Counted from the first letter of the stretch, positions 36,378 through 52,225 are shown. The stretch is 64,000 bases of DNA from Burkholderiales bacterium (GCA_020848435.1 JADLAC010000043.1:670-64669); one strand, 5' to 3'. Numbers and translations are program-made. Notes: generated by a model not told the origin, from the letters alone.

Positions 36378-38093
36378 TCAAGCGCCGGGCGCGATCCCGG
36401 GATCGGCGCCGACACCGGAAAGCGCCGGCCGGTTCAGCGCCGGCGGGCGAATGGTCTTGCTGTTGCGCAGATACGTGCTCACGACCTCCCACACCGGCTC
36501 GCCGGATGCGCCCTCGGCCACCGGCGCCCAGCTCACGATCTTGTAGCGCTTGCCGGCCTCGATCGGTTGGCCCTTCAGCGTCATGTTGCCGATGCGCTTG
36601 CCCATCGCGGCCGTCGGATCGCAGGCGTAGCGCATGCCGCCGATGCGCACCATGTCGCCGCCTTGCTGGTAATAGGGATCGGGGTTGAACAGGTTGTCGC
36701 AGATATCTTCGAGCAGCGCCTTGATGCTCTCCCCGCTCAGCTCGTTCACGGTGACGTAAGGATAGGTGATCGCGGTCGCGTTCATGACGTCTTCGGTCGT
36801 GATCGGCGTCCCGGGGAGCACGCTCGTGCCCCAACGAAAGCCGGGCGAGAACGCGATCTCGGCGCCCTTCACCGCGAGCAGCGCATCGAGAATGACCTGG
36901 TCCAGCGTGCCATTGAAATTCCCGCGCCGGTAGAGCAAGCCCTCGCTCACGGCGAGCTTTTCGCCGAGCTTCGCCGCGTACGGTGCGCGGTACTTGCGAA
37001 TGAGCGCCTCCATGTCGGCATCGGCGGGGAGCGCATTGGCGAATACCGGCAGCAGGCGGTAGTCGTAGCCGCTCACCCCGGCGCGCGTGACCTCCAGGTC
37101 CAGCACGGCGAGAAACTTGCCGTTCGAGCCCGCGTTGGTGACCAAGGTCGTGCCGCTCGCGTTCTTCACGACAACCGGCCGGGGCACCGCGTCGTGCGTG
37201 TGACCGCCGAGAATGGCGTCGATGCCGGTCACGCGCGATGCGAGCTTCAAATCGACATCCATGCCGTTGTGCGAGAGCAGGATCACGGCCCAGGCGCCTT
37301 TGGCGCGCGCCTCCGCGACCGTCTTCTGCAGCCGCTCTTCCTGGATGCCAAAGGTCCACTCGGCGACGAAGTGGCGCGGATTCGCGATCGGCGTATACGG
37401 AAACGCCTGGCCGATGATGGCGACCGGCACGCCGTTGAGCTCGCGCAGCGAGTACGCCTTGAAGACGGGATCGTCGAAATCCGCGCTGCGCACGTTCTGC
37501 GCCAGGAATTCGATGCTGCCGAGATCCTCGGCGAGCGCCTGCTTCACGCGCGCCGCGCCATAGGTGAATTCCCAATGCGCCGTCATCATGTCCACGCCGA
37601 GCGCGCGGCAAGCGGCACGCATGTCGGCGCCCTGGGTCCACAGCGCGGTCGCGGAGCCTTGCCAAGTGTCACCGCCATCGAGCAGCAGAGCGCCGGGACG
37701 CTGCGCGCGCACTTGCTTCACCAGCGTGGCGAAGTGCGCGAAGCCACCGACCTTGCCGTACCTACGCGCCGCTTCGACGAAATCGAGGTGGCTGTAGGCG
37801 TGCGCGAGCGCCGTGCCTGGCGAGATGCCGAAATGGCGCAGCAACGCCTCGCCGACGAGGTGCGGCGGTTTGCCGCGCGCCTCCTTGACCCCGATGTTGA
37901 CGTCCGGCTCGCGAAAATAGACCGGCAGGAGCTGCGCGTGGCAGTCGGTGAAATGCAGTAGCGTGACCTGGCCGCGCCGCTTCGGCAGGACGTAGAGCGC
38001 TTGCGGCTCGCTTGCCGCGCGCGTCGCCAGCGGCAATCCGGCCGCGAGCGCGGCCGCCAGGACCTCGAGAAACTCGCGCCGCGTCATCGACAT
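36378..38093 (-). CDS. soxB: Thiosulfohydrolase SoxB
   Basis: Tat signal MSMTRREFLEVLAAA, then VTLLHFTDCHAQLLP...DGGDTWQGS...LLSHNGMDVD...GGHTHD. These are the dimanganese metallophosphoesterase motifs of SoxB, and the protein is 571 aa. Confidence 0.95.
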   Translation of the reverse strand: MSMTRREFLEVLAAALAAGLPLATRAASEPQALYVLPKRRGQVTLLHFTDCHAQLLPVYFREPDVNIGVKEARGKPPHLVGEALLRHFGISPGTALAHAYSHLDFVEAARRYGKVGGFAHFATLVKQVRAQRPGALLLDGGDTWQGSATALWTQGADMRAACRALGVDMMTAHWEFTYGAARVKQALAEDLGSIEFLAQNVRSADFDDPVFKAYSLRELNGVPVAIIGQAFPYTPIANPRHFVAEWTFGIQEERLQKTVAEARAKGAWAVILLSHNGMDVDLKLASRVTGIDAILGGHTHDAVPRPVVVKNASGTTLVTNAGSNGKFLAVLDLEVTRAGVSGYDYRLLPVFANALPADADMEALIRKYRAPYAAKLGEKLAVSEGLLYRRGNFNGTLDQVILDALLAVKGAEIAFSPGFRWGTSVLPGTPITTEDVMNATAITYPYVTVNELSGESIKALLEDICDNLFNPDPYYQQGGDMVRIGGMRYACDPTAAMGKRIGNMTLKGQPIEAGKRYKIVSWAPVAEGASGEPVWEVVSTYLRNSKTIRPPALNRPALSGVGADPGIAPGA

Positions 38094-38142
38094 GCTGGCT
38101 AGCGAATGGTGTCCGCCGCGCTGAGTTTGGCCTCGCCGCGAG

Positions 38143-38778
38143 CTAGCGGTTGAGCGGCGATTGCGGGTCGATCAGGTACGCGACCAGGTGCGTGATCTGA
38201 TCGCTCGTGAGATGCTTGTTCGCGCCGAGGCGCGGCATGTTCGAGCACGGGAAGTACAGCCAACTGTTGTAGACCTTTTCGTAGACGTACTTCGCCGTCT
38301 CCGGCGAATTGCCGCGCTTGGTGCCGAATCCGGTCAGCGCGGGGCCCACGTTGCCAACGTTGATCTCGCCGCGTGCGAGGGCATGACAGTTCTGGCACAG
38401 GCCGCCATTCTCCTTGCGCTTTTCCAGCACCCCGCGAGCGATGCGATCGCCCGCCCCGTCGTGCGCCAGCGCTTCGCCGATCTTCCAGTTGCCGACCAGC
38501 TTGCCCGAGGCAGGATACTGGATCGAGGTGCGAGCGAGCTCGATGACCTCGGCGGCCTCTTCCTGCGTCAGGGCGGCATCCTCCACCTTGCTACAGAGGC
38601 GTTGCGCGCGATCCTGCTCAAGGCGCTTGAGCAGCTGCGGCGATGGGGCGGTAAAGCTCGCGCTGACGATCTTCTCGGCGCTCGCCCGGGTCTCGGCGGC
38701 ATCCGGAAAGGTCGCGCAACCGAGCGCCAGCGCGGCAGGCACGCTAGCGGCAATGCATTTCCACCATCCAGCTCGCAT
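38143..38778 (-). CDS. soxX: Monoheme cytochrome c SoxX
   Basis: There is a single CQNCH heme motif followed by ...NVGPALTGFGTKRGNSPETAKYVYEKVYNSWLYFPCSNMPRLG. It sits between soxA and soxB. Confidence 0.85.
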   Translation of the reverse strand: MRAGWWKCIAASVPAALALGCATFPDAAETRASAEKIVSASFTAPSPQLLKRLEQDRAQRLCSKVEDAALTQEEAAEVIELARTSIQYPASGKLVGNWKIGEALAHDGAGDRIARGVLEKRKENGGLCQNCHALARGEINVGNVGPALTGFGTKRGNSPETAKYVYEKVYNSWLYFPCSNMPRLGANKHLTSDQITHLVAYLIDPQSPLNR

Positions 38779-38787
38779 GTTTGCTCC

Positions 38788-39597
38788 TCAGCGCTTGAAC
38801 CCGGGCACCTCGATGACGGCGCCGTGGCCTTGCCGGTGCAGATAGGTCGTGAGCGCGATCGACACATCCGAAAGATAAGTCAGCTCCGGCAGGCGCATCT
38901 GCCAGAAACAATCGTACAGCCGCCACTGCATCGTGCGCACCACGCCGTGCGAGCCGCGATAGGCTGGCCAGCTCGACACCACCCCCTGAATCCCGGCCGG
39001 CTCGGTCATGTTGATCAGATCCTGCAGACGGATGCGTTTGCCCGATTCGCCATGGCAGGTGACGCAGGCGAAATCGGTCTGCCCCGAGCGGCGGTGGAAC
39101 AGATACTCGCCCATCTTGTACATCTCGCGCTCCTTCGCATGCGCGAGCGGCGGATCCATCTTCATGCCGTTCGAGCGCGAGGTGACGTACAAGGCGAGCG
39201 ATTCGATATCCGAGCCGTCGCTCAAGGGCGCGCTGATCGCGCTCTTGGCCAGGGCCGCTTGATCGAAGCCCTGCAAGCGCACCATGCAAGTGACCAGGCG
39301 CGATTCGAGGTCCTGCACCCGATCGGTATCGGCGAAATAGCGCGGCAGCCGGGCCGCGGCGCCCGCCAGCTTGCCGGGGCCGAGCCCGAAGTCGCACTGC
39401 TCGAGGCTCGCCTGTTTCGGGCCGCGCTTCTCGTGGTAGAGGCGTTTGCCGCGATCGAGCCACAGCTCGCCCGGGTTGTCCTCCACCAGCATCTTGCGGC
39501 CGATTTCGAGTCCCTCGCCCGGGCTTTGCGCGCTGCTCGCGGCCGAACACAGGCACGCGAACGCGAGCGCCGCCACGCGAATGGGTCGTGTGGGCAT
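38788..39597 (-). CDS. soxA: Cytochrome c SoxA (single-heme type)
   Basis: There is one CVTCH motif. The conserved distal Cys lies in WRLYDCFWQMRLP. The N-terminal heme site is absent (EQCDFG). The protein is 269 aa with a signal peptide. Confidence 0.9.
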   Translation of the reverse strand: MPTRPIRVAALAFACLCSAASSAQSPGEGLEIGRKMLVEDNPGELWLDRGKRLYHEKRGPKQASLEQCDFGLGPGKLAGAAARLPRYFADTDRVQDLESRLVTCMVRLQGFDQAALAKSAISAPLSDGSDIESLALYVTSRSNGMKMDPPLAHAKEREMYKMGEYLFHRRSGQTDFACVTCHGESGKRIRLQDLINMTEPAGIQGVVSSWPAYRGSHGVVRTMQWRLYDCFWQMRLPELTYLSDVSIALTTYLHRQGHGAVIEVPGFKR

Positions 39598-39628
39598 GCT
39601 CCTCCTCCTATGCTTGGACTGTGTACGA

Positions 39629-39949
39629 TCAGGAGGGCGGCGCGACCGTTGCCTCGTCGGAACGCTTGTCGCCCTTGTTGTCGGTCCAGGTCACCATGAT
39701 TTTGTCGCCGGCCTTCGCGCCCTTGATGCGCAGCCCGAGAAACGGATCGCGCGACACCGCCTGACTCCATTGCGCGTCGAATACCGTCTTGCCGTTGTGG
39801 CTCACCACCACGTTCTGAATGAAATGCAACGGAATGACCTGCCCCTTCGCGTCCTTGCGTTGCCCGGTTTCCATCGGATGGCGCATGAGGATGCGCACAT
39901 CGGCCACGTCGCCCTGCAGCGTGGCTCTGATTCTCATCGGCTCAGCCAT
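39629..39949 (-). CDS. soxZ: Sulfur carrier complex subunit SoxZ
   Basis: MAEPMRIRATLQGDVADVRILMRHPMETGQRKD...HFIQNVVVSHNGKTVFDAQWSQAVSRDPFL is typical SoxZ. Confidence 0.9.
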   Translation of the reverse strand: MAEPMRIRATLQGDVADVRILMRHPMETGQRKDAKGQVIPLHFIQNVVVSHNGKTVFDAQWSQAVSRDPFLGLRIKGAKAGDKIMVTWTDNKGDKRSDEATVAPPS

Positions 39950-39985
39950 TACGGCATTCTCCCTGGTCGCGTCGCAGCGAGCGTA

Positions 39986-40450
39986 TCAACCGCATCCGCC
40001 GACGGTGACCTTCACTTCCTTCACCGCGGTGTAGAACTTGCCGTCGGCCTTGACGATCGCGCGCACATTCGAGGTCTGGCCCATCTTCAGGCGCACCGAG
40101 GCGTAGCCCTCGGCGCCGCTGCCGAAATCGAACGTCGCCGCCAGCGGGAACGGATTCTTTTCCGCGATGATGGAAATGCTCTGGGTATTGGGCAGCTTGC
40201 TCGTCACCGCGATCGGCACGACCGCACCGTTTTCCGCGATGTCCGGAGCCGTGATGATGATGTCCTTCGACTCGAGCGCATCGGTCGCGCCCAGGTGCTT
40301 GACCGCTTCGGCCGCCGCCTTGGAGTCGAACCCGGCCGCGTTGCGCGCGGCCCCGGCCGGCATGACCGCGATCAGCCCGAGCGCAGCGGCCGCTCCCCAT
40401 GCCGCGGTGCCCGCGCTTGCTTCGAGAAAACGCCTGCGTGAACGCTTCAT
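39986..40450 (-). CDS. soxY: Sulfur carrier protein SoxY
   Basis: It has the Tat signal MKRSRRRFLE. The invariant C-terminal swinging arm ends ...VKVTVGGCG. Confidence 0.95.
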   Translation of the reverse strand: MKRSRRRFLEASAGTAAWGAAAALGLIAVMPAGAARNAAGFDSKAAAEAVKHLGATDALESKDIIITAPDIAENGAVVPIAVTSKLPNTQSISIIAEKNPFPLAATFDFGSGAEGYASVRLKMGQTSNVRAIVKADGKFYTAVKEVKVTVGGCG

Positions 40451-40530: not shown

Positions 40531-40557
40531 GAAAACATAATATATGAAAAGGCGAAT
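40531..40557. promoter_or_regulatory. The only AT-rich patch (gaaaacataatatatgaaaaggcgaat) in the 107-bp divergent soxY / plus-strand-array intergenic region; candidate promoter or operator
   Basis: Read directly. It contains CATA-N3-TATG dyad symmetry and a TATAAT-like stretch in an otherwise very GC-rich spacer. Confidence 0.3.
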
Positions 40558-41661
40558 ATGATTACAATGGCCGGGTTTCGGCTTGCAGCTAGACTTGGCG
40601 CCATGCACGTCGACGTGTTCCTCGAATTCGCCTCGCCGCCGGCGGCAGGCCATCGCCTGGACGAGGTTTTCGGCAACGGTCTCGCGGCTGCCCGCGCCGC
40701 CGACCGGGCGGGCTTCGGGGCCGTCTGGCTCGCCGAGCACCATTTCCTCGGCGACTATTCGAACGCGGCCGCACCCGAGATGCTGGCCGCGGCGATGGCG
40801 CGCGAGACCCGGCGGATCGGCCTGGGCTTTGCCGTGATCCCGCTGCCGCTGCACGACCCCGTGCGCGTCGCCGAGCGGCTCGCGACGCTCGATCTGCTCT
40901 CGAACGGACGCGCGTTATGGGGCGTGGGCCGTGGCGTCACAGCGGCCGAGCTGCACGCTTTTGGCGTCGAGCCCGCGCACAGCCGCGGCGAGTTCCTGCG
41001 TCGCTACGCGGAGCTGGCCGCGGTGCTGCGCAGCGGCGACGTCGTGCGCGGGGGTCGCGCGCTGAAGCTTCGCCCCGCCCCCGCGGCGCGGCTCGCGCAG
41101 GGCTGGATGGCCGCGGTGAGCCCCGAGAGCTACACCCTTGCCGCCGAGCTCGGCCTCGACGTGATGGCCGGTCCATTCAAACCCTGGCGCTGGGTGCGTG
41201 CCGATTTGGCGCGTTATCGCCTGCTGCGCCCGCAAGGGCGAACCTCGTTCACGCTCGCTTGTTATTGCGAGCGCGACCATGCCGCGGCGCGCAGGCGCGC
41301 CGGCCCAGGCATCGTCTGGGCGTTCCGCCATATCGTCGAGGTCGCGCGCCCGTTCCTGAGCACCCGCACCGGAGGTTACGAGTATTACCGCCGTCTGGGC
41401 GTCGCTTCCATGCTGATGGAGCAGCGGCTGAGCCTGCCCCTGCTGGAGCTGCTCGGACTGGCCGCGGTCGGCGATCCGGCGCACGTCGCGGCGAAGCTCG
41501 CCCGGCTCGCCGCGTCCGGCTTGGACCGGGTACAGCTCGTCATTGGCGGCGGCGACCTGGCTGCCGCGCAGCTCGAAGCCTGTATCGACCTCCTCGCCGA
41601 GCGCGTGCTGCCCGCGCTTGCCGCGGCGGGGCCTTCAGCCGCAGTCGAGGAGGCCGCTTGA
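40558..41661 (+). CDS. Luciferase-like (LLM-class) flavin-dependent oxidoreductase
   Basis: ...MHVDVFLEFASPPAAGHRLDEVFGNGLAAARAADRAGFGAVWLAEHHFLGDYSNAAAPEMLAAAMARETRRIGLGFAVIPLPLHDPVRVAERLATLDLLSNGRALWGVGRG is the canonical LLM TIM-barrel N-terminal pattern. The start is ATG 40558 (after AAAAGG) or ATG 40603. Confidence 0.8.
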   Translation: MITMAGFRLAARLGAMHVDVFLEFASPPAAGHRLDEVFGNGLAAARAADRAGFGAVWLAEHHFLGDYSNAAAPEMLAAAMARETRRIGLGFAVIPLPLHDPVRVAERLATLDLLSNGRALWGVGRGVTAAELHAFGVEPAHSRGEFLRRYAELAAVLRSGDVVRGGRALKLRPAPAARLAQGWMAAVSPESYTLAAELGLDVMAGPFKPWRWVRADLARYRLLRPQGRTSFTLACYCERDHAAARRRAGPGIVWAFRHIVEVARPFLSTRTGGYEYYRRLGVASMLMEQRLSLPLLELLGLAAVGDPAHVAAKLARLAASGLDRVQLVIGGGDLAAAQLEACIDLLAERVLPALAAAGPSAAVEEAA

Positions 41662-42518
41662 GCACGACGCTCGCCAGGATCCATCGGCGCGCGGCGCGTT
41701 ATCGCGATCCGCTCGCCCTGCTGGATTTTTCCGTGGCCGACCCCAAGCTGCCCTGGATTCCGTACGAGCTTCTGAGCCTCGCTGCCTTGCCCGAGTATGC
41801 GGCGATGTCGCAGGCCGAGCGCGTGCGGCTGAGCCGGGTCGATTTCGCCCGCCTGTGCGCAACCGGCGTGTGGCTCGAGGGCCTGCTCATGAGTCGCGCG
41901 ACCGCGCGCGGCTTCGTCGGCGCACCGATCGACGAGGCGTGCGTCATGCTGCAGGAAGTGCGGGAGGAAGCCGGACACAGCTTGATGTTCTTGCGCATGA
42001 TCGAGCGCGCCGGCATGTCCGCTGTGCCGCTGCTCGGACCGACGCGGCTTCTGACGGCGTTCGCGCGCCGGCTCGCGCCGGATCAAGCCGAGTTCTGGGC
42101 CATGGTCTATCTCGGCGAATCGGTCACCAACACTTTCGCCGCCAAGGTGCTGCGGGCAGCGGCCGCGGGCGCGGCACTGTGTCCACTGGCGCGCCAAGTG
42201 ATGGCATTGCACCATCATGACGAAGCGCATCATCTCGCCGCGGCACGCGCGCTGTTGGAAGCCCGCATTGCCGGCCTGGGGGCCCTGCGCCGGCACGCGT
42301 TTGCCGGGCTCGTGCGCGCGCTGCTGCGCCGTTTTCTCGAGGCCACGCTCTATCCCACGCCGGCGAGCTTACGCTCGCTCGGCGTCGATGACGCGGACGC
42401 CCTGGCGCGGCGGGTGCGGCAATCGCGCGAGCGCCGCGCGCTCGCCGAGGCTTGTGCCGCGCCCGCGCTCGCCTTTTTGACCCGCACCGGGCTGCTCGGC
42501 GCGACGGAGGCAGCATGA
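41658..42518 (+). CDS. AurF-like diiron oxygenase family protein (286 aa)
   Basis: A TTG start follows GAGGAGG and overlaps the LLM stop as TTGA. There are two E-x-x-H ligand motifs (VREEAGHSLMF and HHHDEAHHLAAA) in a helical protein, plus the family-typical N-terminus YRDPLALLDFS...PWIPYELLSL. This is the last 286 codons of tracked ORF 40917..42518. Confidence 0.7.
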   Translation: MSTTLARIHRRAARYRDPLALLDFSVADPKLPWIPYELLSLAALPEYAAMSQAERVRLSRVDFARLCATGVWLEGLLMSRATARGFVGAPIDEACVMLQEVREEAGHSLMFLRMIERAGMSAVPLLGPTRLLTAFARRLAPDQAEFWAMVYLGESVTNTFAAKVLRAAAAGAALCPLARQVMALHHHDEAHHLAAARALLEARIAGLGALRRHAFAGLVRALLRRFLEATLYPTPASLRSLGVDDADALARRVRQSRERRALAEACAAPALAFLTRTGLLGATEAA

Positions 42519-43576
42519 CCGAACGCAACCACGCCGGGCACGATTGGCGTGCCGCCAGCGCGCGAATCGAGCCCTTCGAGGATGCGCCATTCGATGCGGC
42601 GCTCATCGCCGAGTGCGAGCGCGAGGCGGCGGCCATAAGGCAGCGTCCGCTCAAGGTCTCCACGCCGACGTTCAAGACCTTCGACAGCGCCGACATCAAG
42701 GGCTGCTCGAAGATGAGCTTCCCCGCCTTCTCGATCACCGGCGGCGGCTGTGCGCTCATGTGCGACCACTGCCAGGCGAAGATACTCGAGCCCATGATCC
42801 CGGCGACCAGCCCGGAGATGCTCGAGCGCAAGGTGCGCGACCTCGTCCGGCTGCAGGACCTGCGCGGCTTTCTCCTCTCGGGCGGATCGAATCGCCGCAA
42901 CGAAGTGCGTTACGAGCGCTTCCTCCCGGCGATCGAGCGGCTGAAGCGGGAGTTCCCTTATCTGCGGATCGCGGTTCACAGCGCGCTGCTCGATTCGGCG
43001 CGCGCCAAGCAGCTCGAAAGCGCCGGCATCGATACGGCGATGATGGACGTGATCGGGGCCGAGGCGACCATCCGCGAGGTCTATCACCTGGAGCGCTCGG
43101 TCGAGGATTTCGAAGACACCCTCGCGGCCTTGTGCGCGACCCGCATGCAGATCGTCCCGCACATCGTCATCGGACTGCACTACGGCCGCCTGCTAGGCGA
43201 GGAGAACGCACTCGCGATAGTCGCCCGGCAGCGCGTGCACGCGCTGGTGCTGGTCGTCGTCATGCCGTTCTATGCCAAGGCCGGGACGTTCGCGACCCCC
43301 GAGCCGGCCGCGGCCGGGCGCATTTTCCTGGCCGCGCGCCGCATGCTGCCCGCGCAGGACGTGCTGCTCGGCTGCGCCCGTCCCGCGGGGATGGACAAGC
43401 GTCTGACCGATGCCTATGCGGTCATGGCCGGTCTCGACGGCATCGCCTTCCCTGCCGAAGGCGCGGTTGCGCTCGCGCGCGCGATCGGGCGGCCGATCCA
43501 CCAGGAGCACGCCTGCTGCGCGGTCAAGCTCGGCGCGCGCGCGCGCTCGGCCTTCGGCGGGGCCTGCGCGGCATGA
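42515..43576 (+). CDS. Radical SAM protein, LipS-type (sHdr-associated lipoyl synthase component; LipS1 by synteny)
   Basis: The ATG follows GGAGG and overlaps the diiron-oxygenase stop as ATGA. The CX3CX2C cluster motif is GGGCALMCDHCQAK. Confidence 0.8.
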   Translation: MTERNHAGHDWRAASARIEPFEDAPFDAALIAECEREAAAIRQRPLKVSTPTFKTFDSADIKGCSKMSFPAFSITGGGCALMCDHCQAKILEPMIPATSPEMLERKVRDLVRLQDLRGFLLSGGSNRRNEVRYERFLPAIERLKREFPYLRIAVHSALLDSARAKQLESAGIDTAMMDVIGAEATIREVYHLERSVEDFEDTLAALCATRMQIVPHIVIGLHYGRLLGEENALAIVARQRVHALVLVVVMPFYAKAGTFATPEPAAAGRIFLAARRMLPAQDVLLGCARPAGMDKRLTDAYAVMAGLDGIAFPAEGAVALARAIGRPIHQEHACCAVKLGARARSAFGGACAA

Positions 43577-44640
43577 CGCCCGCGATCGACGTGCTCGTGG
43601 TGGGGCTCGGGCCGGCGGGCAGCCGCGCTGCCTGGGCAGCCGCGCGCGCGGGCTTGAGCGTGCTGGCCATCGAGCGCAAGCCGCGCATCGGCGAACCGGT
43701 GCAGTGCGCCGAACTGGTCCCCATGGCCCTCGAGCAGGAGCTGCCCCAGCTCGGCCGCGCCACGGTACAAAGCATCGAGGCCATGCACACCTATATCGAG
43801 GACGGCGCCTGCGACGTCGCGCCGCATTTTCCCGGCGCCATGCTCGATCGAAGGCGCTTCGATGCCGCGCTCGCGGATGCGGCACGCACGGCGGGCGCGG
43901 ATTGCCGTTGCGGAATCGCTTTTCAGTCACTGGAGCAAGGCGGTGCCGTGCGCTTGAACGATGGCAGCCGCATCCATGCCGGCGTGATCATCGGCGCCGA
44001 CGGCCCGCGCTCGCGCATCGGGCGCTTGGCCGGTCGCAGCAATCGCGAGCTGTTGGAAGCGCGGCAAGTCAGCGTGCCGCTCACGCACCGGCACGCGGCC
44101 ACCGATATCTTCCTGTCATGCAATATTCCGGGCGGCTACGGCTGGTTGTTTCCGAAAGGCGATGTCGCCCACGTCGGCGCCGGCGTGGCGCCGGCGGCGC
44201 GGGCGCAGTTGCGGAAAATCGTCGAGCGGCTGCACGCCAAGCTGGCCGCGCAAGGCCGCGTGGGCACATCGGTCCTGGAGCGCACCGGCGGCGCCATCCC
44301 GGCGAGCGGAATGCTCGATCCGATCGCGCGCCTGGGGGAGACACCCGTGCTGCTCGCGGGCGATGCAGCCGGCCTCACCAACCCGGTGACCGGCGCGGGC
44401 ATCGCCGCGGCGGTGTACTCCGGCGCGCTCGCAGGCGAGGCGGCCGCCGCATGGCTAGCAGGCAAGCGTAACGCCTTGCACGACTACCGCGACGAGCTGC
44501 AATGCATCTTCGGCGCCGCGCTCGAACGCGCTCTGTCGCGCCGGCGCGCGCTCGCGCAAGCGCAGCGCAACGGCGAGGTTCTCTCGCGCGCGGCGCAGCG
44601 CCGCGGCTGGATCGCCTATCCCGAGTACTGGACGGCCTGA
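43573..44640 (+). CDS. lipT: Geranylgeranyl-reductase-family FAD-dependent oxidoreductase (LipT-like)
   Basis: MTPAIDVLVVGLGPAGSRAAWAAARAGLSVLAIERKPRIGEPVQCAE...IIGADGPRSRIG...LLAGDAAGLTNPVTGAGI. The ATG overlaps the upstream stop as ATGA. The symbol is assigned by synteny only. Confidence 0.75.
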   Translation: MTPAIDVLVVGLGPAGSRAAWAAARAGLSVLAIERKPRIGEPVQCAELVPMALEQELPQLGRATVQSIEAMHTYIEDGACDVAPHFPGAMLDRRRFDAALADAARTAGADCRCGIAFQSLEQGGAVRLNDGSRIHAGVIIGADGPRSRIGRLAGRSNRELLEARQVSVPLTHRHAATDIFLSCNIPGGYGWLFPKGDVAHVGAGVAPAARAQLRKIVERLHAKLAAQGRVGTSVLERTGGAIPASGMLDPIARLGETPVLLAGDAAGLTNPVTGAGIAAAVYSGALAGEAAAAWLAGKRNALHDYRDELQCIFGAALERALSRRRALAQAQRNGEVLSRAAQRRGWIAYPEYWTA

Positions 44641-44664: not shown

Positions 44665-45924
44665 GTGGCGTGCGTCACCCCGGACAATGCCCTGCCCCGA
44701 GCGAACGCGGCGGGCACGCTCGACTTCAACCCCTACGGCGCGATGCAGCCGCGCGCCTCGCCGCCGGTCCCGCAGGCACTGCGCAACGGGGCGCGCGTGA
44801 AGTCGCACAACGTCGCGCCCGCCGGGGCCTACATCCCGGACATCAATATCCTCACGCCCCACATGCGCTCGCCGCAATACGTGCAGATGTCGCGCGCGGC
44901 CGCTATCACGCTCGGGGTCATGCCCGGCAAGATGCATCGCTGCGAGTGTACGCGCTGCCTCAACCTGCTGCTCACGTACCCGGAGGGATGCCGCGCGAAC
45001 TGCGCCTACTGCGGGCTCGCCCGCCATCGCGAAGCCGAGCGCGATTATGCCGATCGCAATTTCATCCGCGTCGACTGGCCGGCCTTGCCGCTCGAGCAGG
45101 TGACCGCCATGGTCGCCGGCGCGGCCAGTGGCACGCCGTTCCACCGCATGTGCATCAGCATGATCACCCACCCGCGCTCGGACGCCGACACCGTCGCGGT
45201 GCTCCGCAGCTGGACGCGCCGCGTCGATCCGCGCTCGCTCCCGGTATCGATCCTGTCGAATCCGACCACGATGAGCCGCGCCGACGTGCAGCGTTTGAAG
45301 GACCTGGGCGCCGACATCTTCACCGTCGCGCTCGACGCCTGCACTCCGGAGCTGTTCGAGCGCACCCGCGGGCGCGGCGTCCAGTCGCCACATTCGTGGC
45401 GCAAGTACTGGGAGATTCTGCACGACGCGCGCGATATCTTCGGCCGCGAGAAGTTCGGCATGCACCTCATCATCGGCATGGGCGAGAGCGAATTCGAGGC
45501 GCTCTCGGTGGTGCAGCGGCTGGTCGATCTCGGCGGCCACAGCCACATGTTCTGCTTTTTTCCTGAGCAGGGTTCGCTCATGGATCACCTGCCGGCCACG
45601 CCGCGCGACCAATGGCGCCGGGTGCAGCTCGCGCGCTACCTGATCGACTACCGCGGCGTGCGCCTCGAGCACATGCGCTTCGACGAGCTCGGCCGCGTGA
45701 GCGATTTCGGCCTGCCGCGCTCGGAGCTCGACGCCATCGTCGATGCCGGCATCGCCTTTCGCACCTCAGGTTGTCCCGGCAAGTTTCGCGACGACGTCTC
45801 GGCCTGCGACCGGCCGTACGGAGACTCGCCGCCGTCGAACATCGCCAGCTACCCGTTCCAGCCGCTCGGCCGCGACATCGTGCGCATCCGGCGCGATCTC
45901 GCCATGCGCAAGCGCGCGCGTTGA
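44665..45924 (+). CDS. Radical SAM protein, LipS-type (LipS2 by synteny), biotin-synthase-like
   Basis: The GTG start follows GAGGAG. The CX3CX2C motif is YPEGCRANCAYCGLAR. The protein is 419 aa. Confidence 0.8.
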   Translation: MACVTPDNALPRANAAGTLDFNPYGAMQPRASPPVPQALRNGARVKSHNVAPAGAYIPDINILTPHMRSPQYVQMSRAAAITLGVMPGKMHRCECTRCLNLLLTYPEGCRANCAYCGLARHREAERDYADRNFIRVDWPALPLEQVTAMVAGAASGTPFHRMCISMITHPRSDADTVAVLRSWTRRVDPRSLPVSILSNPTTMSRADVQRLKDLGADIFTVALDACTPELFERTRGRGVQSPHSWRKYWEILHDARDIFGREKFGMHLIIGMGESEFEALSVVQRLVDLGGHSHMFCFFPEQGSLMDHLPATPRDQWRRVQLARYLIDYRGVRLEHMRFDELGRVSDFGLPRSELDAIVDAGIAFRTSGCPGKFRDDVSACDRPYGDSPPSNIASYPFQPLGRDIVRIRRDLAMRKRAR

Positions 45925-45931: not shown

Positions 45932-47008
45932 GTGGCGACGGCGTTCGGCGTCATCGATACCGGCCTGCGCGAGGGCCGGGCCAATATCGCCTTCGACGCC
46001 GCGCTGATCGAGGCGCGGCGCACCGGCGTGATCGGGGACACCATCCGCTTCCTCAGCTTCGCGCCGAGTGCCCTGGTCGGCAGGCACCAGGCCATCGGGC
46101 GCGAGATCAAGCTCGACTATTGCCGCGCGCACGGCATCGGGCTGGCGCGTCGCATCACCGGCGGCGGCGCGATCTACTTCGATCCGGGCCAGCTCGGCTG
46201 GGAGCTGGTGTTCGAGCGCAAGAGCCTGGGCCTCGACTCGCTGGCCGAGACCACGGCGGCGATTTGTTCGGCAGCGGCGAAAGGGCTGCAACGCCTGGGT
46301 GTCGCCGCGGCGTTTCGGCCGCGCAACGACATCGAGGTCGAGGGTCGCAAGCTCTGCGGCAGCGGCGGGTTCGTCGACGCTGACGTGGTGTTCTTCCAGG
46401 GCACGCTGCTGATCGAGTGCGACCTGGCTGCGGTGGTGCGTGCGCTCAACGTGCCGCAGCCCAAGCTCGCCAAGCGCGGTCTCGAAACGGCAGCGCAGCG
46501 CATGGTGACCTTGCACGAACTGCTCGGCGTCCGCCTGCCGAGCCCGGATCGGATCAAGGCGGCATTGCTGGCGGGCTTCAGCGAAGGGCTCGACCTCGAT
46601 GCCCAGTGGCGCCGCGTGAGCGAAACCGAGGAAGCGATCGCGCAGCGCCTGCTGGAAGAGGAGATCGGCACCGACGCTTTCGTGTTCGACATCGACGATC
46701 CGGCGGCCGACGGCGCGGCCGCGGCAGGCACCCGCACGACCCCCGGCGGCACCATCACCGCGTACCTGAAGCTCGAAACCGCGGGGACGCCGCGGGTCGG
46801 CGAAGCGCTTGTGACCGGCGACTTCTTCGCCGCCCCTCCGCGCCTCGTTCTGGACCTTGAAGCCGCGCTACGGGGAGCTCCGGTGCAGGATATCGGCGCG
46901 GCCGTGGAGCGGTTCTTTGCCGGGCGGCACGTGGAGGTGCTGTCGGTGACGCCGGCGGATTTTCGCGCGGCCTTGGAGCAAGCCGCCGACGCAGCCGGGC
47001 AGCGTTGA
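45932..47008 (+). CDS. Lipoate-protein ligase, sLpl(AB)-type (358 aa)
   Basis: The start is GTG 45932: (V)ATAFGVIDTGLREGRANIAFDAALIEARRTGVIGDTIRFLSFAPSALVGRHQAIGREIKLDYCRAHGIGLARRITGGGAIYFDPGQLGWELVF. This is the LplA/LipB/BPL catalytic-fold pattern, including RR.TGGGA.Y.D. Confidence 0.8.
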   Translation: MATAFGVIDTGLREGRANIAFDAALIEARRTGVIGDTIRFLSFAPSALVGRHQAIGREIKLDYCRAHGIGLARRITGGGAIYFDPGQLGWELVFERKSLGLDSLAETTAAICSAAAKGLQRLGVAAAFRPRNDIEVEGRKLCGSGGFVDADVVFFQGTLLIECDLAAVVRALNVPQPKLAKRGLETAAQRMVTLHELLGVRLPSPDRIKAALLAGFSEGLDLDAQWRRVSETEEAIAQRLLEEEIGTDAFVFDIDDPAADGAAAAGTRTTPGGTITAYLKLETAGTPRVGEALVTGDFFAAPPRLVLDLEAALRGAPVQDIGAAVERFFAGRHVEVLSVTPADFRAALEQAADAAGQR

Positions 47009-47014: not shown

Positions 47015-47740
47015 ATGGCGCCCGCACGCCCGAGCTTCTATGTTTTCCAGCCGACCGATGCCGAATACCTCGGCCTCATCGAGGACCACCTGGAAGGCCG
47101 CGGCATCGGCTTCACCTACCTGCGCCCGCACGTCGCCGGCGCGAGGCTGCCGCAGAACACGCGCGCGGCCTGCGGGCTGATACTGCTCGGCGGGGGTCCC
47201 TACGGCGCTCTGGGTCCCCCGCAACTGCCCGGGCGCGATGTCGCCGTGCGGCTTGCGCGCGATGCGTTCGAGCGCGGCAAACCGGTGATCGGCATCGGTC
47301 TCGGCGCACAGCTCCTCGCCATCGCGGCCGGGGGCAGCGCGGAATCGGCGCCTTTGCGGTTCACGGTCGGACGCGCGACCCGCACCGACGATACTGCCCT
47401 GAACGGCCTGCTGCCGCCCGACTATCCCCTGGTGGTGTACATGCGCGATCGGCCGCAGCCGCCGAGCTATGCGCGGATACTGGCGCGCGACGAGGCGGGC
47501 GAGAGCGCGCTGTTCCAGGTCGGCCCCCATGGCCTTGGCTTCAGCGGGCATCCCGGCATCAAGTCCGCCATGGTCGAGGATCTCATCATGGAATTCGACG
47601 ACGCCCCCGCGGATACGGCTACAGGGCTCGCCAAGTTGCGCGGCCTCCAGTCACAAATCGAAGATGCCCTTGTCGGCATCATGGCCGGCGTGCTCGCCAG
47701 CGCCGGGATCGCGGCGCCGGAGGTGACGCGGGACGCTTAA
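47015..47740 (+). CDS. Class I glutamine-amidotransferase-like protein lacking the nucleophile Cys (241 aa)
   Basis: KPVIGIGLGAQLLA replaces the canonical G-I-C-L-G-H-Q-L-L elbow (Cys to Gly). GFSGHPG replaces Q-F-H-P-E (Glu to Gly). The fold-typical spacing is retained. Confidence 0.7.
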   Translation: MAPARPSFYVFQPTDAEYLGLIEDHLEGRGIGFTYLRPHVAGARLPQNTRAACGLILLGGGPYGALGPPQLPGRDVAVRLARDAFERGKPVIGIGLGAQLLAIAAGGSAESAPLRFTVGRATRTDDTALNGLLPPDYPLVVYMRDRPQPPSYARILARDEAGESALFQVGPHGLGFSGHPGIKSAMVEDLIMEFDDAPADTATGLAKLRGLQSQIEDALVGIMAGVLASAGIAAPEVTRDA

Positions 47741-47800
47741 ACATATTCGATTTGCGTTATATGATCAGGCCGGGTATCGTTGCCGCGAAGGATGCCGACA

Positions 47801-48178
47801 ATGAGCAAGAAGCTGGTAATCGTGATGGTGAACACCGATACGCGTAACGGCGAGGAGCTCGGCGCGCCGCTGTTCCAGGCGAGCGTCGCGGCCGCGATGG
47901 ATTACGAGGTCGAAGTGATCTGCACGGCGACCGCCGGGCGGCTCATGAACAAGGGCGTCGCCGAAAACCTGGTGGTGAAACCGGGCTCGCCCAAGACCGT
48001 GTACGATTTCATCAAGGACGCCCACGAGGCCGGGGTGAAGTTCTACGCCTGTTCGCCCAACCTGGAGCTGTTCGGCGTGACCGAGGCGGACCTCATCCCG
48101 GAATGCGCGGGTGTCGTCGGCGGCGCCTACCTGATCGAGCAGGTGATGGAAGGCGACTGCAAGGTCCTAAGCTACTGA
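47801..48178 (+). CDS. dsrE: DsrE/DsrF-family sulfur-relay protein (125 aa)
   Basis: MSKKLVIVMVNTDTRNGEELGAPLFQASVAAAMDYEVEVICTATAG...VKFYACSPNLELFG contains the conserved active-site Cys context. It lies directly upstream of shdrC1. The subtype (DsrE3 and so on) cannot be resolved by eye. Confidence 0.8.
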   Translation: MSKKLVIVMVNTDTRNGEELGAPLFQASVAAAMDYEVEVICTATAGRLMNKGVAENLVVKPGSPKTVYDFIKDAHEAGVKFYACSPNLELFGVTEADLIPECAGVVGGAYLIEQVMEGDCKVLSY

Positions 48179-48186
48179 GCACCGCC

Positions 48187-48933
48187 ATGCACGCCACGGC
48201 CAGCCGCAAGCAGCAGCACATCGGCGATCCGCTGTCGCCGCAGCCGGTGCTCGATCGGGCGCGGCTCGAAGCGATTTTCAACGACATCCAGGCCGACGCC
48301 CGCTACGACCACGAGCTGAACGGGTGCTTGAACTGCGGCATCTGCACCGCGACCTGCCCGGCGGCGCAGTACTACGATTTCAGCCCGCGCGAAATCGTCC
48401 AGCTCCTGTGGACCGAGAACCTGGAGGGCATCTACGACGCGATGCAGGAAAAGATCTGGGCCTGCGCCCAGTGCTATACCTGCGCCGCGCGCTGCCCCTT
48501 CCGCAATTCGCCCGGCAGCCTCATCATGATCATGCGCGAGGTGGCGATCAAGCACGGGCTGCAATCGGCGAAAGACGTGCTGCGGCCGTTCTCGCGCGTG
48601 ATGCTGAAGCTGATCTCGACCGGCAACCAGCTCTCGCCCGACATGATCACCGCCGATCACTTCGCCGACTGGGGGCCGAACATCTCCAAGATCGATGCGC
48701 CGCTCAAGCTGTTGCGCCAGGCGATCCCCATGCCCACGCTCAACACCATGCAGACGGCTTGGGAGGTCAACCTCAAGACCTCGATCGAGCTCTATACCAT
48801 ATGGGAGATGACCGGCGTGCTGAAGCAGCTCGAGATCATCGACGAAAACCTGTTCGACGTGATCACCGACATCATGGACGAGAAGCGCGAGGACTACGAG
48901 GACTGGCGCGAGTCGCAAGACGGCAACGAGTGA
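48187..48933 (+). CDS. shdrC1: Heterodisulfide-reductase-like subunit C1 (two 4Fe-4S ferredoxin motifs)
   Basis: CLNCGICTATCP and CAQCYTCAARCP motifs are present. The position and size (248 aa) fit sHdrC1. Confidence 0.85.
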   Translation: MHATASRKQQHIGDPLSPQPVLDRARLEAIFNDIQADARYDHELNGCLNCGICTATCPAAQYYDFSPREIVQLLWTENLEGIYDAMQEKIWACAQCYTCAARCPFRNSPGSLIMIMREVAIKHGLQSAKDVLRPFSRVMLKLISTGNQLSPDMITADHFADWGPNISKIDAPLKLLRQAIPMPTLNTMQTAWEVNLKTSIELYTIWEMTGVLKQLEIIDENLFDVITDIMDEKREDYEDWRESQDGNE

Positions 48934-48961
48934 CGGCGCTGGACGCCGGCGGAGGCATGGC

Positions 48962-50305
48962 ATGAACGACATCGAGGGCACTCGTTTCACCGGTCACGGA
49001 CCGGAGTGGAAGGACGCGAAGCTCAGCGCGCGGGATGCGCGGGCCGCGACCGCCTGGGTGGAGGCGAAAGTCGACCGCGCGGCCTTGACCGGCAAGGATC
49101 GCGTCGAGGACGTGCGCGATCGCATGCGCGAGCTGGAGCGCGACGGCGAAATCGTCGTGCACCGCATCCGCGACGAGCACGCACCGGTCGAGGCCAAGAC
49201 GCTCTACGGCTGGACCAAGCGCATCCCCACGGCGCAGCTCTGGCATCACAAGTCCTGCGGCCAGTGCGGCAACATTCCGGGCTACCCGACCTCGCTGCTG
49301 TGGCTCATGAACCAGCTCGGCACGGTCTACCTGGACGAGACCGACCAGACCTCGTGCACCGCCTGGAACTACCACGGCTCGGGCATCGGCAACCTGGAGA
49401 GTCTCGCCTGCGTCTTCCTGCGCAACTTCCACCAGGCTTATGTCTCGGCGCGCGCGCAAGGGCTGCCCGATGGCTACTATTTCCCGCTGGTTCACTGCGG
49501 CACCTCCTTCGGCAATTACAAGGAAGTGCGCGCCTACCTGCTGCGCTCGGCGGAGCTGCGCGAGAAAGTGAAGAAGGTGCTGGCGAAGCTCGGCCGGCTG
49601 GTCGACGGCAAGCTGCTCATTCCCGAGGAGGTGGTGCATTACTCGGAGTGGCTGCACGTCATGCGCAGCCGTATCCGCGCGATCCAGACCATCGATGTCG
49701 GCAAGCTGCGTGCCGTCATCCACCCGGCATGCCACGTCTACAAGATGGTCCCCGAGGACGCGATCTACGACGATGAAGTGCTCGACGGCAACCGGGTCGC
49801 GGTGTCCACCGGCCTCGTCCAGGCGCTCGGCGCGCAGGTGATCGATTATTCAACCTGGTACGACTGCTGCGGCTTCGGCTTCCGCCACATCATCTCCGAG
49901 CGCGAATTCACCCGCTCGTTCGCCATGGACCGCAAGGTCAAGGTCGCGGTCGAGGAAGCGCACGCCGACGTGATGATCGGTCACGATACCGGTTGCATAA
50001 CCACGCTCGACAAGAACCAGTGGATCGGCAAAGCGGCCGGCAAGCACGCCGAGATCCCGATCGTCGCCGATTGCCAGTTCGCCGCGCTCGCCTGCGGGGC
50101 GCACCCGTACAAGATCGCGCAGCTGCACTGGCACGCCTCGCCGGTCGAGAAACTGCTCGCGCAGATGGGCATCGACTGGCAGCGGGCCAAGGCCGAATTC
50201 GAGAGCTATCTCGAAGCAGTGCGCAATGGCCGTGGCGAGCATCTGTACGACCCGCGCCGCGCCATTACCTCCGGGCCGGGCGCGCGCAAACCCGTGATGG
50301 CGTAA
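48962..50305 (+). CDS. shdrB1: Heterodisulfide-reductase-like subunit B1 (CCG domain)
   Basis: The ATG follows GGAGG. Motifs: HHKSCGQCGNIPGY, TSCTAWNYHGSG, HPACHVYK and YDCCGFGFRH (CCG motif). The protein is 447 aa. Confidence 0.85.
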   Translation: MNDIEGTRFTGHGPEWKDAKLSARDARAATAWVEAKVDRAALTGKDRVEDVRDRMRELERDGEIVVHRIRDEHAPVEAKTLYGWTKRIPTAQLWHHKSCGQCGNIPGYPTSLLWLMNQLGTVYLDETDQTSCTAWNYHGSGIGNLESLACVFLRNFHQAYVSARAQGLPDGYYFPLVHCGTSFGNYKEVRAYLLRSAELREKVKKVLAKLGRLVDGKLLIPEEVVHYSEWLHVMRSRIRAIQTIDVGKLRAVIHPACHVYKMVPEDAIYDDEVLDGNRVAVSTGLVQALGAQVIDYSTWYDCCGFGFRHIISEREFTRSFAMDRKVKVAVEEAHADVMIGHDTGCITTLDKNQWIGKAAGKHAEIPIVADCQFAALACGAHPYKIAQLHWHASPVEKLLAQMGIDWQRAKAEFESYLEAVRNGRGEHLYDPRRAITSGPGARKPVMA

Positions 50306-50310
50306 CGACC

Positions 50311-51354
50311 ATGACCATACTCGTAGTGGGTGCCGGCCCGGCCGGGTTGGCGGCGGCGTATGCCCTGGCCCGGGTCGGCCAGCCGGTAACGCTGGTGGAC
50401 AAGGCGCAGCGCCTGGGCGGCGCGCCGATTCTTTCCGGCTATGCGAAGCTGATTCCCTCGGGCGAATGGGCGCGCGATGCGATCGGCGGCATGGTGCGCC
50501 GGGTCGAAGAGGCGGCCCTCGTGAGCGTGGAAACGAACACCACGGTGAGTGCATTCGACGGAGAGGCGGGCAAGTTCACCGCCCGTTTGAGCAACGGCAA
50601 GAGCGTGCCATGCGCTGCCGCCATCCTGTGCACGGGCTTCACCCACTTCGATTCGGTGAACAAGCCCGAATGGGGCTTCGGCACCTATCCCGATGTCGTG
50701 ACCACGACCCAGGTGGAGCAGATGATCTCCTCTGGCCAGGGCGTACGCTGCCCCTCGGACGGCCGCAAGCCCGAGCGCGTCGCCATCCTGCTGTGCGTCG
50801 GCTCGCGCGACCGGCAGATCGGCCGCGAATGGTGCTCGAAGGTATGCTGCACCGTGTCGGCGAATCTCGCCATGGAGATTCGCGAAGAGCTGCCTCAGTG
50901 CCATGTGTACATCTATTACATGGACATCCGCACCTTCGGCTTGAACGAGGACCTGTACTACTGGCGCAGCCAGGAACAGTTCAAGGTCAAGTACATCAAG
51001 GCACGGATCGCCGAGGTCACTTCCGACGGCCAGCGGCTGGTCGTGAAGGGCGAGGATACGCTGGTTAAGCGCCCCATCACCATACCGTTCGACCTGGTCG
51101 TGCAAGCGATCGGCATGGATCCCAATGTCGACAATCGCGCGCTGGCCGCGGTGTTCGGAGTCGGTCTGCAGCACCACGGCTACGTCGCGCGCGCCAGCGC
51201 GTATGCCGGCATGGCGCTGTCGACACGTCCCGGGGTGTTCGTGGCGGGTGCGGCTACCGGACCGGAGACGATCGACGACTCGATCGCCCAAGGCGAAGCA
51301 GCGGCGATGGCCGCCCTCGGCGTGGTGCGCGCCAGCGCCGCGCTGGCAGCGTGA
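50311..51354 (+). CDS. shdrA: Heterodisulfide-reductase-like flavoprotein subunit A (short sHdrA type, 347 aa)
   Basis: MTILVVGAGPAGLAAAYALARVG is the FAD motif. ILLCVGSRDRQIGREWCSKVCCTVS is the HdrA 4Fe-4S Cys pattern. GVFVAGAATGPETIDDSIAQG lies at the C-terminus. Confidence 0.9.
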   Translation: MTILVVGAGPAGLAAAYALARVGQPVTLVDKAQRLGGAPILSGYAKLIPSGEWARDAIGGMVRRVEEAALVSVETNTTVSAFDGEAGKFTARLSNGKSVPCAAAILCTGFTHFDSVNKPEWGFGTYPDVVTTTQVEQMISSGQGVRCPSDGRKPERVAILLCVGSRDRQIGREWCSKVCCTVSANLAMEIREELPQCHVYIYYMDIRTFGLNEDLYYWRSQEQFKVKYIKARIAEVTSDGQRLVVKGEDTLVKRPITIPFDLVVQAIGMDPNVDNRALAAVFGVGLQHHGYVARASAYAGMALSTRPGVFVAGAATGPETIDDSIAQGEAAAMAALGVVRASAALAA

Positions 51355-51358
51355 TCGC

Positions 51359-52210: not shown

Positions 52211-52225
52211 TGCGCGACCGAGCCC

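Follow-up and report, generated by a model that had tools for sequence, protein, structure and literature searches.

Why should two oxygen-activating enzymes stand at the head of a gene array for oxygen-labile radical SAM and Fe-S proteins? The question is raised by a 64,000-nt stretch of DNA from a Burkholderiales bacterium (GCA_020848435.1 JADLAC010000043.1:670-64669; hereafter, the window), in which genes for a luciferase-like flavin monooxygenase (LLM) and an AurF-like diiron oxygenase directly precede the genes for lipoylation of LbpA (lip genes) and for the sHdr sulfur oxidation system (shdr genes). The initial annotation had considered three roles for the two enzymes: oxidative tailoring or repair of the protein-bound lipoyl or octanoyl arm, production of the acyl precursor, or oxygen-dependent processing of an organosulfur substrate that feeds the pathway. 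We find that the LLM gene and the gene for the AurF-type diiron oxygenase are always adjacent, nearly always overlap by 4 nt, and constitute a fixed oxygenase cassette. We suggest that, in a subset of sulfur oxidizers, this cassette would have been recruited to the front of the LbpA lipoylation unit. That the pair serves LbpA lipoylation by acting on an acyl-lysine or C8-acyl group is a reading of the gene contexts to which we give about an even chance. The lip/sHdr system itself is already known, from the sLpl(AB)-LipS1/LipS2-LipT clusters of sHdr oxidizers (Cao et al. 2018, PMC6067878; Tanabe et al. 2023, PMC10332631); what is new is the oxygenase pair, a widespread histone deacetylase (HDAC)-like neighbour in related loci, and the fusion of the diiron and HDAC-like proteins.

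Coupling of the oxygenase pair to the lip genes

The first gene of the lip transcription unit encodes the LLM, a 352-aa flavin-dependent monooxygenase of a LuxA-like clade (40603..41661, + strand; PF00296, 1.4e-43), and is followed by the gene for the 286-aa AurF/CmlI-type ferritin-like diiron oxygenase (41658..42518, + strand; PF11583, 1.7e-34), which starts with TTG. Proteins identical to the two enzymes carry the NCBI label of a Burkholderiales MAG. Both junctions were located correctly at the outset. In the TTGA at 41658-41661, the diiron TTG begins at 41658 and the LLM stop codon TGA occupies 41659-41661; in the ATGA at 42515-42518, the lipS1 ATG begins at 42515 and the diiron stop codon TGA occupies 42516-42518. 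An ATGA overlap of the same type joins the stop of lipS1 to the start of lipT. Shine-Dalgarno sequences are present for both downstream genes, GAGGAGG for the diiron gene, within the coding end of the LLM gene (41645..41651, + strand), and GGAGG ahead of lipS1 (42505-42509, + strand).

The diiron gene does begin at its unusual TTG, as the N-terminal methionine of 28 homologues aligns at the same column. The LLM start had been placed at 40558 and has to be moved 45 nt downstream, to the ATG at 40603, which gives a protein of 352 aa, the length of the identical NCBI-derived protein P0121 and of nearly all homologues. The ATG at 40558 falls inside a conserved AT-rich non-coding element, and a start at this position was rejected, the equivalent ATG being out of frame or running into a stop codon in two related loci (L001 and L082).

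Overlaps of 4 nt are common in GC-rich operons, and the G+C content of the window is 67%. Such an overlap is by itself weak proof of a functional link; what carries weight is that it has been kept in several lineages of Alpha-, Beta-, and Gammaproteobacteria. The 4-nt overlap between the LLM stop and the diiron start is found in 29 of 33 orthologous loci, with ATG or GTG as the start codon. Between positions 40600 and 47700, no promoter-like or terminator-like sites exceed the expectation from shuffled sequence, and the sole candidate for an internal terminator that would split the pair from lipS1 (42312-42329), a weak 5-bp stem inside the diiron open reading frame (ORF), was dismissed. The original proposal that the pair heads the lip/sHdr array and is translationally coupled to it is borne out by the overlaps, the Shine-Dalgarno sites, and the conservation of the overlap, and the predicted layout shows a co-transcriptional architecture with conserved translational coupling of the LLM and diiron genes to the lip genes.

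Conservation of the pair in lip and shdr loci

A forward scan of one genome per GTDB species matched 257 stretches encoding relatives, and 80 loci were retrieved. In each of the 33 genome loci with a diiron protein at least 48% identical to that of the window, an LLM gene lies immediately upstream on the same strand (orthologues 53-85% identical), and lipS1-lipT-lipS2-slpl follow the pair wherever the contig continues, usually succeeded by lipX-dsrE-shdrC1B1A and a gene for a hypothetical protein. These loci come from Rhodospirillales, Magnetovibrio, Thalassospiraceae, Kiloniellales, Hyphomicrobiales, an Ectothiorhodospiraceae metagenome-assembled genome (MAG), and Burkholderiaceae. Most carriers are Alphaproteobacteria from aquatic or marine settings (Rhodospirillales and relatives), joined by a few beta- and gammaproteobacterial MAGs. 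A reverse scan of metagenomes, seeded with LipS1, yielded 80 loci (LipS1 64-82% identical), 49 of them with enough upstream DNA to be informative. The pair is present in 15 of the 49 (nine of which also have an HDAC-family gene), an HDAC-family gene alone stands directly upstream of lipS1 in 27, and both are missing from seven. Presence in ~30% of closely related lipS1 loci makes the pair an optional module; among pair-negative loci, no gene taking its position, such as a possible anaerobic equivalent, was found. With 33 genome loci and 15 metagenome loci carrying the pair ahead of lip or lip-shdr genes, it is far from absent in other sHdr loci, the shared function originally read from the coupling gains support, and the pairing of the two genes with the lip operon is not due to chance.

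The pair appears to travel with the lip genes, because four loci (L013, L027, L031, and L130) retain the pair and the lip genes with no shdr following slpl in the DNA covered; in L013 and L031, slpl is followed by sox genes. A diverged AurF-like paralogue (35-38% identity) is encoded directly upstream of lipS1 in two further loci (L043 and L060), which looks like a second, independent association of an AurF-like protein with lipS1. LipT was present in 11 of 11 scorable pair-positive loci versus 20 of 29 pair-negative ones; this association is weak and only nominally significant (Fisher p = 0.04, uncorrected for phylogeny). In about a third of the pair-negative loci, lipT is missing between lipS1 and lipS2 (e.g., L092, L103, L107, L120, and L122, as well as L140, L146, L153, L155, and others). 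One predicted protein, P0274 (406 aa), is a chimeric ORF that joins the first 145 residues of an AurF-like protein to the C-terminal part of sLpl, probably as a result of a deletion or misassembly across the lip genes.

Among the genera whose MAGs or isolates encode more distant AurF-like paralogues (30-45% identity) are Thioalkalivibrio, Sulfuriferula, Thiobacillus, Acidiferrobacter, and Thiohalorhabdus. These paralogues are mostly standalone: an LLM gene is nearby in 12 of 46 loci, and in 11 of the 46, a gene for an epimerase-family short-chain dehydrogenase/reductase (SDR) lies between the LLM and AurF-like genes. No conserved neighbour beyond LLM and SDR was found in these 46 loci (Thioalkalivibrio L055, P0120/L081, and others), and we set these contexts aside as a clue to the substrate, the two frequencies telling little. 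In Thiohalorhabdus (L032:6202-11537), an LLM-SDR-AurF-like-TetR cassette is accompanied by a divergent gene for a Zn-dependent alcohol dehydrogenase, and similar arrangements are seen in L034, L046, and L051. Because LLM and AurF-like units occur away from lip genes, we conclude that the two-enzyme unit is old and that lip operons have recruited it; originally, it may have acted on a small hydrophobic molecule. Two distant AurF-like relatives are themselves fusions, P0330 (765 aa) with an FNR-like/2Fe-2S reductase and P0338 (594 aa) with an alpha/beta hydrolase, which hints at how such enzymes are supplied with electrons when they have no LLM.

The optional presence of the cassette (15 of 49 LipS1-seeded loci) is also what would be expected of a passenger, that is, a mobile small-molecule oxidation cassette that came to lie between a sulfur-responsive promoter and lipS1 and is co-expressed with the operon without any mechanistic part in lipoate or sHdr metabolism. 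The LLM-SDR-AurF-like paralogue cassettes with their own TetR elsewhere, and the many standalone paralogues, would fit this explanation. However, the position and the 4-nt coupling are kept across diverse taxa, in 48 loci and at 48-79% protein identity, the coupling extends to the next gene, be it lipS1 or the HDAC gene, a fusion to the HDAC-like gene that neighbours lipS1 has been preserved, and a second AurF-like subfamily has independently come to stand beside lipS1 in L043 and L060, all of which makes a mere passenger quite unlikely.

The two enzymes and their candidate chemistries

The LLM matches PF00296 with 149.9 bits (cut-off 27.9), residues 1-308 covering positions 1-313 of the 314-position profile. 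Its best match among solved structures is the homodimeric LuxA of Enhygromyxa salina (8cbb, 4.9e-21), followed by 8k74 (a poly(acrylic acid) monooxygenase), PuwE, and LuxA of V. harveyi; the nearest solved relative is thus a LuxA that converts a fatty aldehyde to the acid. When the LLM is aligned to 1brl and 8cbb, wlaEHHF corresponds to wllEHHF and GvGRG to GiCRG, the Arg of GxxRG being kept. We take the EHHF motif to hold the catalytic His44/His45 of LuxA, and the Arg of GxxRG to be the phosphate-binding Arg. In these two features, the protein resembles the LuxA-type alkanal monooxygenases (8cbb; V. harveyi 1brl); it differs from them in having Gly in place of LuxA Cys106, and no luxCDE genes accompany it. 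Luciferase, SsuD, SfnG, and DmoA identities were all rejected, scores against the NCBIfam equivalog models being far under the cut-offs: 54.1 versus 600 for the luciferase alpha model luciferase_Alph, 28-33 versus 510-518 for SsuD, 27 versus 383 for SfnG, and 45 versus 280 for NtaA/DmoA. NCBIfam models of the FMN type and of the F420 type both match weakly. The protein is accordingly best described as a predicted LuxA-clade flavin monooxygenase that is neither a luciferase nor an SsuD- or DmoA-type enzyme.

These relationships bear on substrate feeding, in which the pair would oxygenate organosulfur compounds or protein-bound sulfane sulfur, for instance through C-S cleavage or S-oxygenation in the manner of SsuD, SfnG, DmoA, or DszA, and the products would enter the sHdr pathway; the cassette would then be tied to sulfur oxidation rather than to lipoate. 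Many members of the LLM superfamily cleave C-S bonds, weak matches to SsuD, SfnG, and DszA are indeed obtained, the cassette occurs in sulfur oxidation islands beside sox, rhodanese, YeeE/SoxT, and MBL-fold genes, and diverged paralogues are found at the end of shdr-lbpA in three loci (L046, L072, and L074). Nevertheless, the LLM matches the LuxA type (4.9e-21) far better than SsuD (2.8e-5) or DszA (2.8e-6) and remains far under every NCBIfam cut-off for sulfur-directed LLMs; moreover, the pair goes with lip rather than shdr where no shdr adjoins, and the fusion to a lysine deacylase homologue has no obvious place in such a model. We therefore regard substrate feeding as unlikely.

The diiron protein matches PF11583 with 119.7 bits (cut-off 29.6). 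Seven predicted ligands (E74, E104, H107, E154, H185, E189, and H192) are invariant in 29 aligned sequences, as is C266, and the ExxH and HxxDExxH motifs with two further Glu make up a 3-His/4-Glu site, the ligand pattern described in the literature for AurF, CmlI, and DnfA. The AF2 model (pLDDT 93.3) is closest in Foldseek comparisons to AurF (2jcd, TM 0.68) and CmlI (5hyh, 0.64), with R2lox next at ~0.55. By sequence, the protein is a distant relation of AurF (profile E = 4e-7, ~20% identity) and belongs to a small subfamily of 62 clusters at E ≤ 1e-30 among 1.84e9 (1.84 billion) representatives, with an N-terminal YRDP...PWLP motif of its own. The ferritin-like fold and the identical seven-ligand pattern are thus held in common with the AurF/CmlI arylamine N-oxygenases (PF11583; 2jcd, 3chh, and 5hyh), whereas the diiron protein is ~50 residues shorter, has the YRDP...PWLP motif and Cys266 in addition, carries Glu where Asp135 of AurF precedes the Glu of ExxH, and has no aromatic-amine pathway encoded around it. 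A more distant parallel is offered by the dimetal-carboxylate halogenases CylC and NocO, AurF-like diiron enzymes which act on C6 of a decanoyl chain tethered to an acyl carrier protein, that is, on an unactivated carbon of a carrier-bound medium-chain acyl group, and which therefore provide an analogy for possible diiron action on octanoyl-LbpA. A CylC-like halogenase was nonetheless ruled out: the motif of CylC is QExxH, and displacement of a Glu opens its halide site, whereas the diiron protein has EExxH, within the motif REEAGH (E103-E104-x-x-H107), and no open site, E154 being invariant.

With a full AurF-type 3-His/4-Glu set in one protein and a LuxA-type EHHF motif in the other, both enzymes look like competent O2 activators, in agreement with their first description. 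Being reactive towards O2 and translated just ahead of LipS1, they might be thought to scavenge O2 or peroxide and so to shield the O2-labile radical SAM and Fe-S proteins encoded on the same mRNA, a notion that the habitat of the carriers, mostly aquatic or marine Alphaproteobacteria besides a few beta- and gammaproteobacterial MAGs, would suit. Yet the cited papers assign no protective role to enzymes of the AurF type or to LLMs, the ligand set resembles that of N-oxygenases, the fold is closest to AurF/CmlI rather than to a peroxidase, and scavenging leaves both the strict pairing and the HDAC fusion without explanation; we judge it highly improbable.

The chemistry of characterized PF11583 enzymes suggests another candidate. 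DnfA and TsnB7 hydroxylate the amide nitrogen of glutamine, and DnfC, a PF00117 glutamine amidotransferase (GATase), hydrolyses the hydroxamate. By analogy, the diiron enzyme could N-hydroxylate glutamine, lipoamide, or the epsilon nitrogen of lysine (as amine or amide), with the product processed by LipX and/or the HDAC-like protein. Both the DnfA/DnfB/DnfC system of Alcaligenes and the TsnB7/TsnB9 system of trichostatin resemble the window in that a PF11583 3-His/4-carboxylate enzyme is encoded together with a PF00117-type protein, here the GATase-like LipX, and related loci add a Zn amidohydrolase; in those two systems, the hydroxamate is subsequently hydrolysed or transferred. The likeness between DnfA and the diiron protein is drawn from the described ligand site of DnfA. 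LipX belongs to the published lip set, which has no AurF-like gene, and thus occurs with or without one; the FNR/2Fe-2S reductase that partners DnfA as DnfB is missing from the array, where the LLM takes its place; and the AurF profile match is just E = 4e-7. Moreover, neither lipoate chemistry nor sulfur chemistry is known to involve a hydroxylamine or hydroxamate. Membership of a DnfABC-type system was rejected on the missing reductase, PF11583 and PF00117-like proteins notwithstanding, and amide or amine N-oxygenation in general seems very unlikely.

An HDAC-like neighbour and its fusion to the diiron enzyme

In ~22 genome loci, the diiron gene and lipS1 are separated by a gene for a 369-aa PF00850 protein (3.2e-62), here too with an overlap of 4 nt (e.g., L006:10870-11979 and L163:10870-11991). 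Of the genes that directly precede lipS1 in related lip-shdr loci, this HDAC-like gene is the most frequent (e.g., L105, L108, L127, and L157); it is not present in the window. Among solved structures, the closest relatives of its product are HDLP of Aquifex aeolicus (6.9e-63) and the class I enzymes HDAC8 (~1e-43), HDAC1, and HDAC2; the resemblance to HDLP and class I HDACs therefore concerns the partner gene of related loci, the window itself being without one. Class I HDACs are lysine deacylases. HDLP is a protein for which we know of no physiological role, and its host presumably carries an sHdr system.

In three cases, the diiron and HDAC-like proteins are fused into a single protein of 659 aa, encoded by a Kiloniellales MAG (L023:451-2430), a 172-kb metagenome contig (L087:7972-9951), and a Logan contig (L162:157-2136, the protein P0241). 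The three fusion proteins align without gaps at 64-87% identity to one another, which argues that selection maintains the fusion and that it did not arise by sequencing error. It constitutes the strongest pointer to the substrate, suggesting that the diiron enzyme shares a process with a homologue of N6-acyl-lysine amidohydrolases.

The array is also present in the complete genome of a named strain, Thalassospiraceae bacterium LMO-JJ14 (L163; CP134604.1, 2923626-2944498), in the order rhodanese-LLM-diiron-HDAC-lipS1-lipT-lipS2-slpl-lipX-dsrE-shdr, with aprBA-like genes upstream.

Gene content and regulation of the locus

On the + strand of the window, the long array runs LLM-diiron-lipS1-lipT-lipS2-slpl(AB)-lipX-dsrE-shdr-lbpA-arsR. 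The lipoate-assembly set is complete in profile searches, lipS1, lipT, lipS2, and slpl(AB) all lying within 42515-47008. It consists of genes for the radical SAM lipoyl synthase component LipS1 (42515..43576, +; NF053742 LipS1, 1.1e-54; PF04055), the FAD-dependent geranylgeranyl-reductase family protein LipT (43573..44640, +; TIGR02032, 1.7e-56, above cut-off), the radical SAM protein LipS2 (44665..45924, +; NF053743 LipS2, 2.7e-52), and the lipoate:protein ligase sLpl(AB), with a GTG start (45932..47008, +; PF21948, 1.5e-42; LplB part, 1.1e-9). The matches of LipS1 (42515-43576; 185.9 versus a curated cut-off of 230) and LipS2 (44665-45924; 178.1 versus 270) are strong (1e-54 and 3e-52, respectively) yet below the NCBIfam equivalog thresholds, so that in the window the specific names are not earned by the curated cut-offs. 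The last gene of the lip unit encodes a class-I glutamine amidotransferase-like protein (47015..47740, +; PF00117, 1.6e-6; PRK07053, 1.6e-15), for which we adopt the name lipX given to the GATase-type gene of the lip set in PMC10332631.

There follow, all on the + strand and identified by Pfam and NCBIfam matches, translations, and synteny, dsrE (47801-48178), shdrC1 (48187-48933), shdrB1 (48962-50305), shdrA (50311-51354), a gene for a hypothetical protein between shdrA and shdrC2 (hyp, 51359-52210), shdrC2 (52226-52993), shdrB2 (53013-53939), and lbpA (54377-54817). The type I sHdr set, shdrC1B1AHC2B2 at 48187-53939, is complete and forms a single syntenic cluster with lbpA; genes of the dsrE-shdr-lbpA block (47801..54817) are 70-90% identical in related syntenic loci. 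Downstream lies a gene for an ArsR-type, sHdrR/SoxR-like regulator (54874..55302, +; PF01022, 2.6e-12). Divergent to the LLM gene, on the − strand and transcribed from 40450, are soxY (39986-40450), soxZ, soxA, a soxX-like cytochrome c gene, and soxB (36378..40450; Pfam SoxY, SoxZ, SoxA-TsdA, Cytochrom_C, and 5_nucleotid_C), in the order soxYZAXB.

The window thus agrees with the published sLpl(AB)-LipS1/S2-LipT clusters in lipS1-lipT-lipS2-slpl-lipX, followed by type I shdr, lbpA, and an ArsR-type gene, with sox nearby, and differs from them by the LLM and diiron genes coupled to its 5′ end; related loci differ further by the added HDAC-like gene. As the initial annotation had supposed, neither oxygenase type belongs to the known sHdr/LbpA/LipS set as far as the searchable literature, whose coverage is incomplete, allows: luciferase, monooxygenase, diiron, and AurF have zero occurrences in PMC10332631 and PMC6067878, and the mentions of "oxygenase" in PMC11094781 and PMC12423496 concern other enzymes. 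No link of a deacetylase or HDAC-like protein to sHdr, LbpA, or LipS was found in the same incompletely covered literature, and the only text on LLM and AurF pairs to turn up was an unrelated phosphonate inventory.

Two AT-rich elements flank the lip unit. The first, ATATATGAAAAGGCGAATATGATTACAATG, is a promoter/operator-like element in the divergent soxY-LLM intergenic region (40540..40569, +) that combines two WATATGAW boxes with a −10-like TACAAT (40562-40567); L001 and L082 have near-identical elements, equally far upstream of the LLM start. The second, AACATATTCGATTTGCGTTATATGATCAGG, lies before dsrE in the 60-nt spacer (47740..47769, +), gives a promoter-like hit, and contains a third WATATGAW box. 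This motif occurs three times in the 64-kb window (at 40541, 40555, and 47758), so that an operator-like motif is common to the element before the LLM gene and the dsrE promoter region. It emerged from the comparison of loci, an inverted-repeat search of the soxY-LLM spacer with a seed of 6 having returned nothing. In many alphaproteobacterial loci, a related, conserved palindrome-like box, ACATATTC(N3-5)ATATGTAAAGTG, is located 55-90 nt upstream of the LLM start (L004, L015, L016, L020, L022, L028, L029, L086, L095, L104, L110, L123, and L141), and the dsrE-proximal element of the window opens with the same AACATATTCG. The repressors sHdrR and SoxR of Hyphomicrobium denitrificans have binding sites upstream of both lipS1 and dsrE3C (PMC12423496). 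By analogy, both AT-rich elements are likely operators of the ArsR-type regulator encoded at 54874-55302, and we infer that the LLM gene would be the leading gene of the regulated lip unit.

A possible role of the pair in LbpA lipoylation

The ligase sLpl(AB) takes free octanoate or lipoate only, and lipY has been described as a putative fatty-acid transporter accessory (PMC10332631). Because the ligase accepts only these free acids, the pathway has genuine gaps at the origin of the precursor and at the maintenance of LbpA. We propose that, in the order [operator]-LLM-diiron-(HDAC)-lipS1-lipT-lipS2-slpl-lipX, the pair would depend on O2 and reduced flavin, with LipT a plausible donor of reducing equivalents, and would act on the N6-acyl-lysine or C8-acyl chemistry of LbpA lipoylation, as an optional accessory rather than a core step. 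This could take either of two forms. In precursor supply, the LuxA-like enzyme would turn an aldehyde into the free acid and the deacylase would cleave lipoate or octanoate off acyl-lysine, which would provide sLpl(AB) with its free substrates. In clearance, aberrant or oxidized octanoyl or lipoyl arms would be oxidatively processed, and LbpA would be lipoylated anew under oxic conditions. A more specific version, in which the diiron enzyme and the LLM oxygenate C, N, or S of the LbpA-bound N6-octanoyl- or N6-lipoyl-lysine and hand the arm on to, or take it over from, a lysine deacylase, is rather unlikely. Of the three roles first considered, the putative ones in arm processing or precursor supply are favoured over organosulfur feeding.

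Several points weigh against a role of the pair in lipoylation. The presumed substrate is inferred from neighbouring genes and one fusion. The cassette is missing from ~70% of closely related lip-shdr loci, and the descriptions of clusters in model organisms, within the literature searched, mention no such genes; because these loci and model clusters do without the cassette, neither lipoylation nor sulfur oxidation needs it. The pair and the HDAC-like module are not obligatorily linked, given that HDAC-only loci and pair-only loci such as the window both occur. The LLM-SDR-AurF-like-TetR cassettes away from lip genes, as in L032, suggest that the ancestral substrate may have been an unrelated small molecule, and the characterized PF11583 enzymes in the cited papers N-oxygenate amines, amides, and hydroxylamine, not fatty acyl chains.

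The sLpl(AB)/LipS1/LipS2 route was established only between 2018 and 2023, and the origin of its free precursor and the preservation of LbpA function in air are at issue. If the pair does act on the arm attached to LbpA, there would be an O2-dependent editing step or an alternative branch of lipoate assembly beside the radical SAM route, and if the diiron enzyme acts on a lipoyl protein, the chemistry of the AurF family would extend to a protein-bound cofactor. Strain LMO-JJ14, provided that a culture exists, is a candidate experimental model for the pair together with the HDAC-like module. The oxygenase pair and the HDAC-like deacylase, two optional conserved modules at the 5′ end of the lip genes, are candidate genes for precursor supply or cofactor turnover, and their occurrence there suggests a possible physiological role for the HDLP-type "histone deacetylases" of bacteria.

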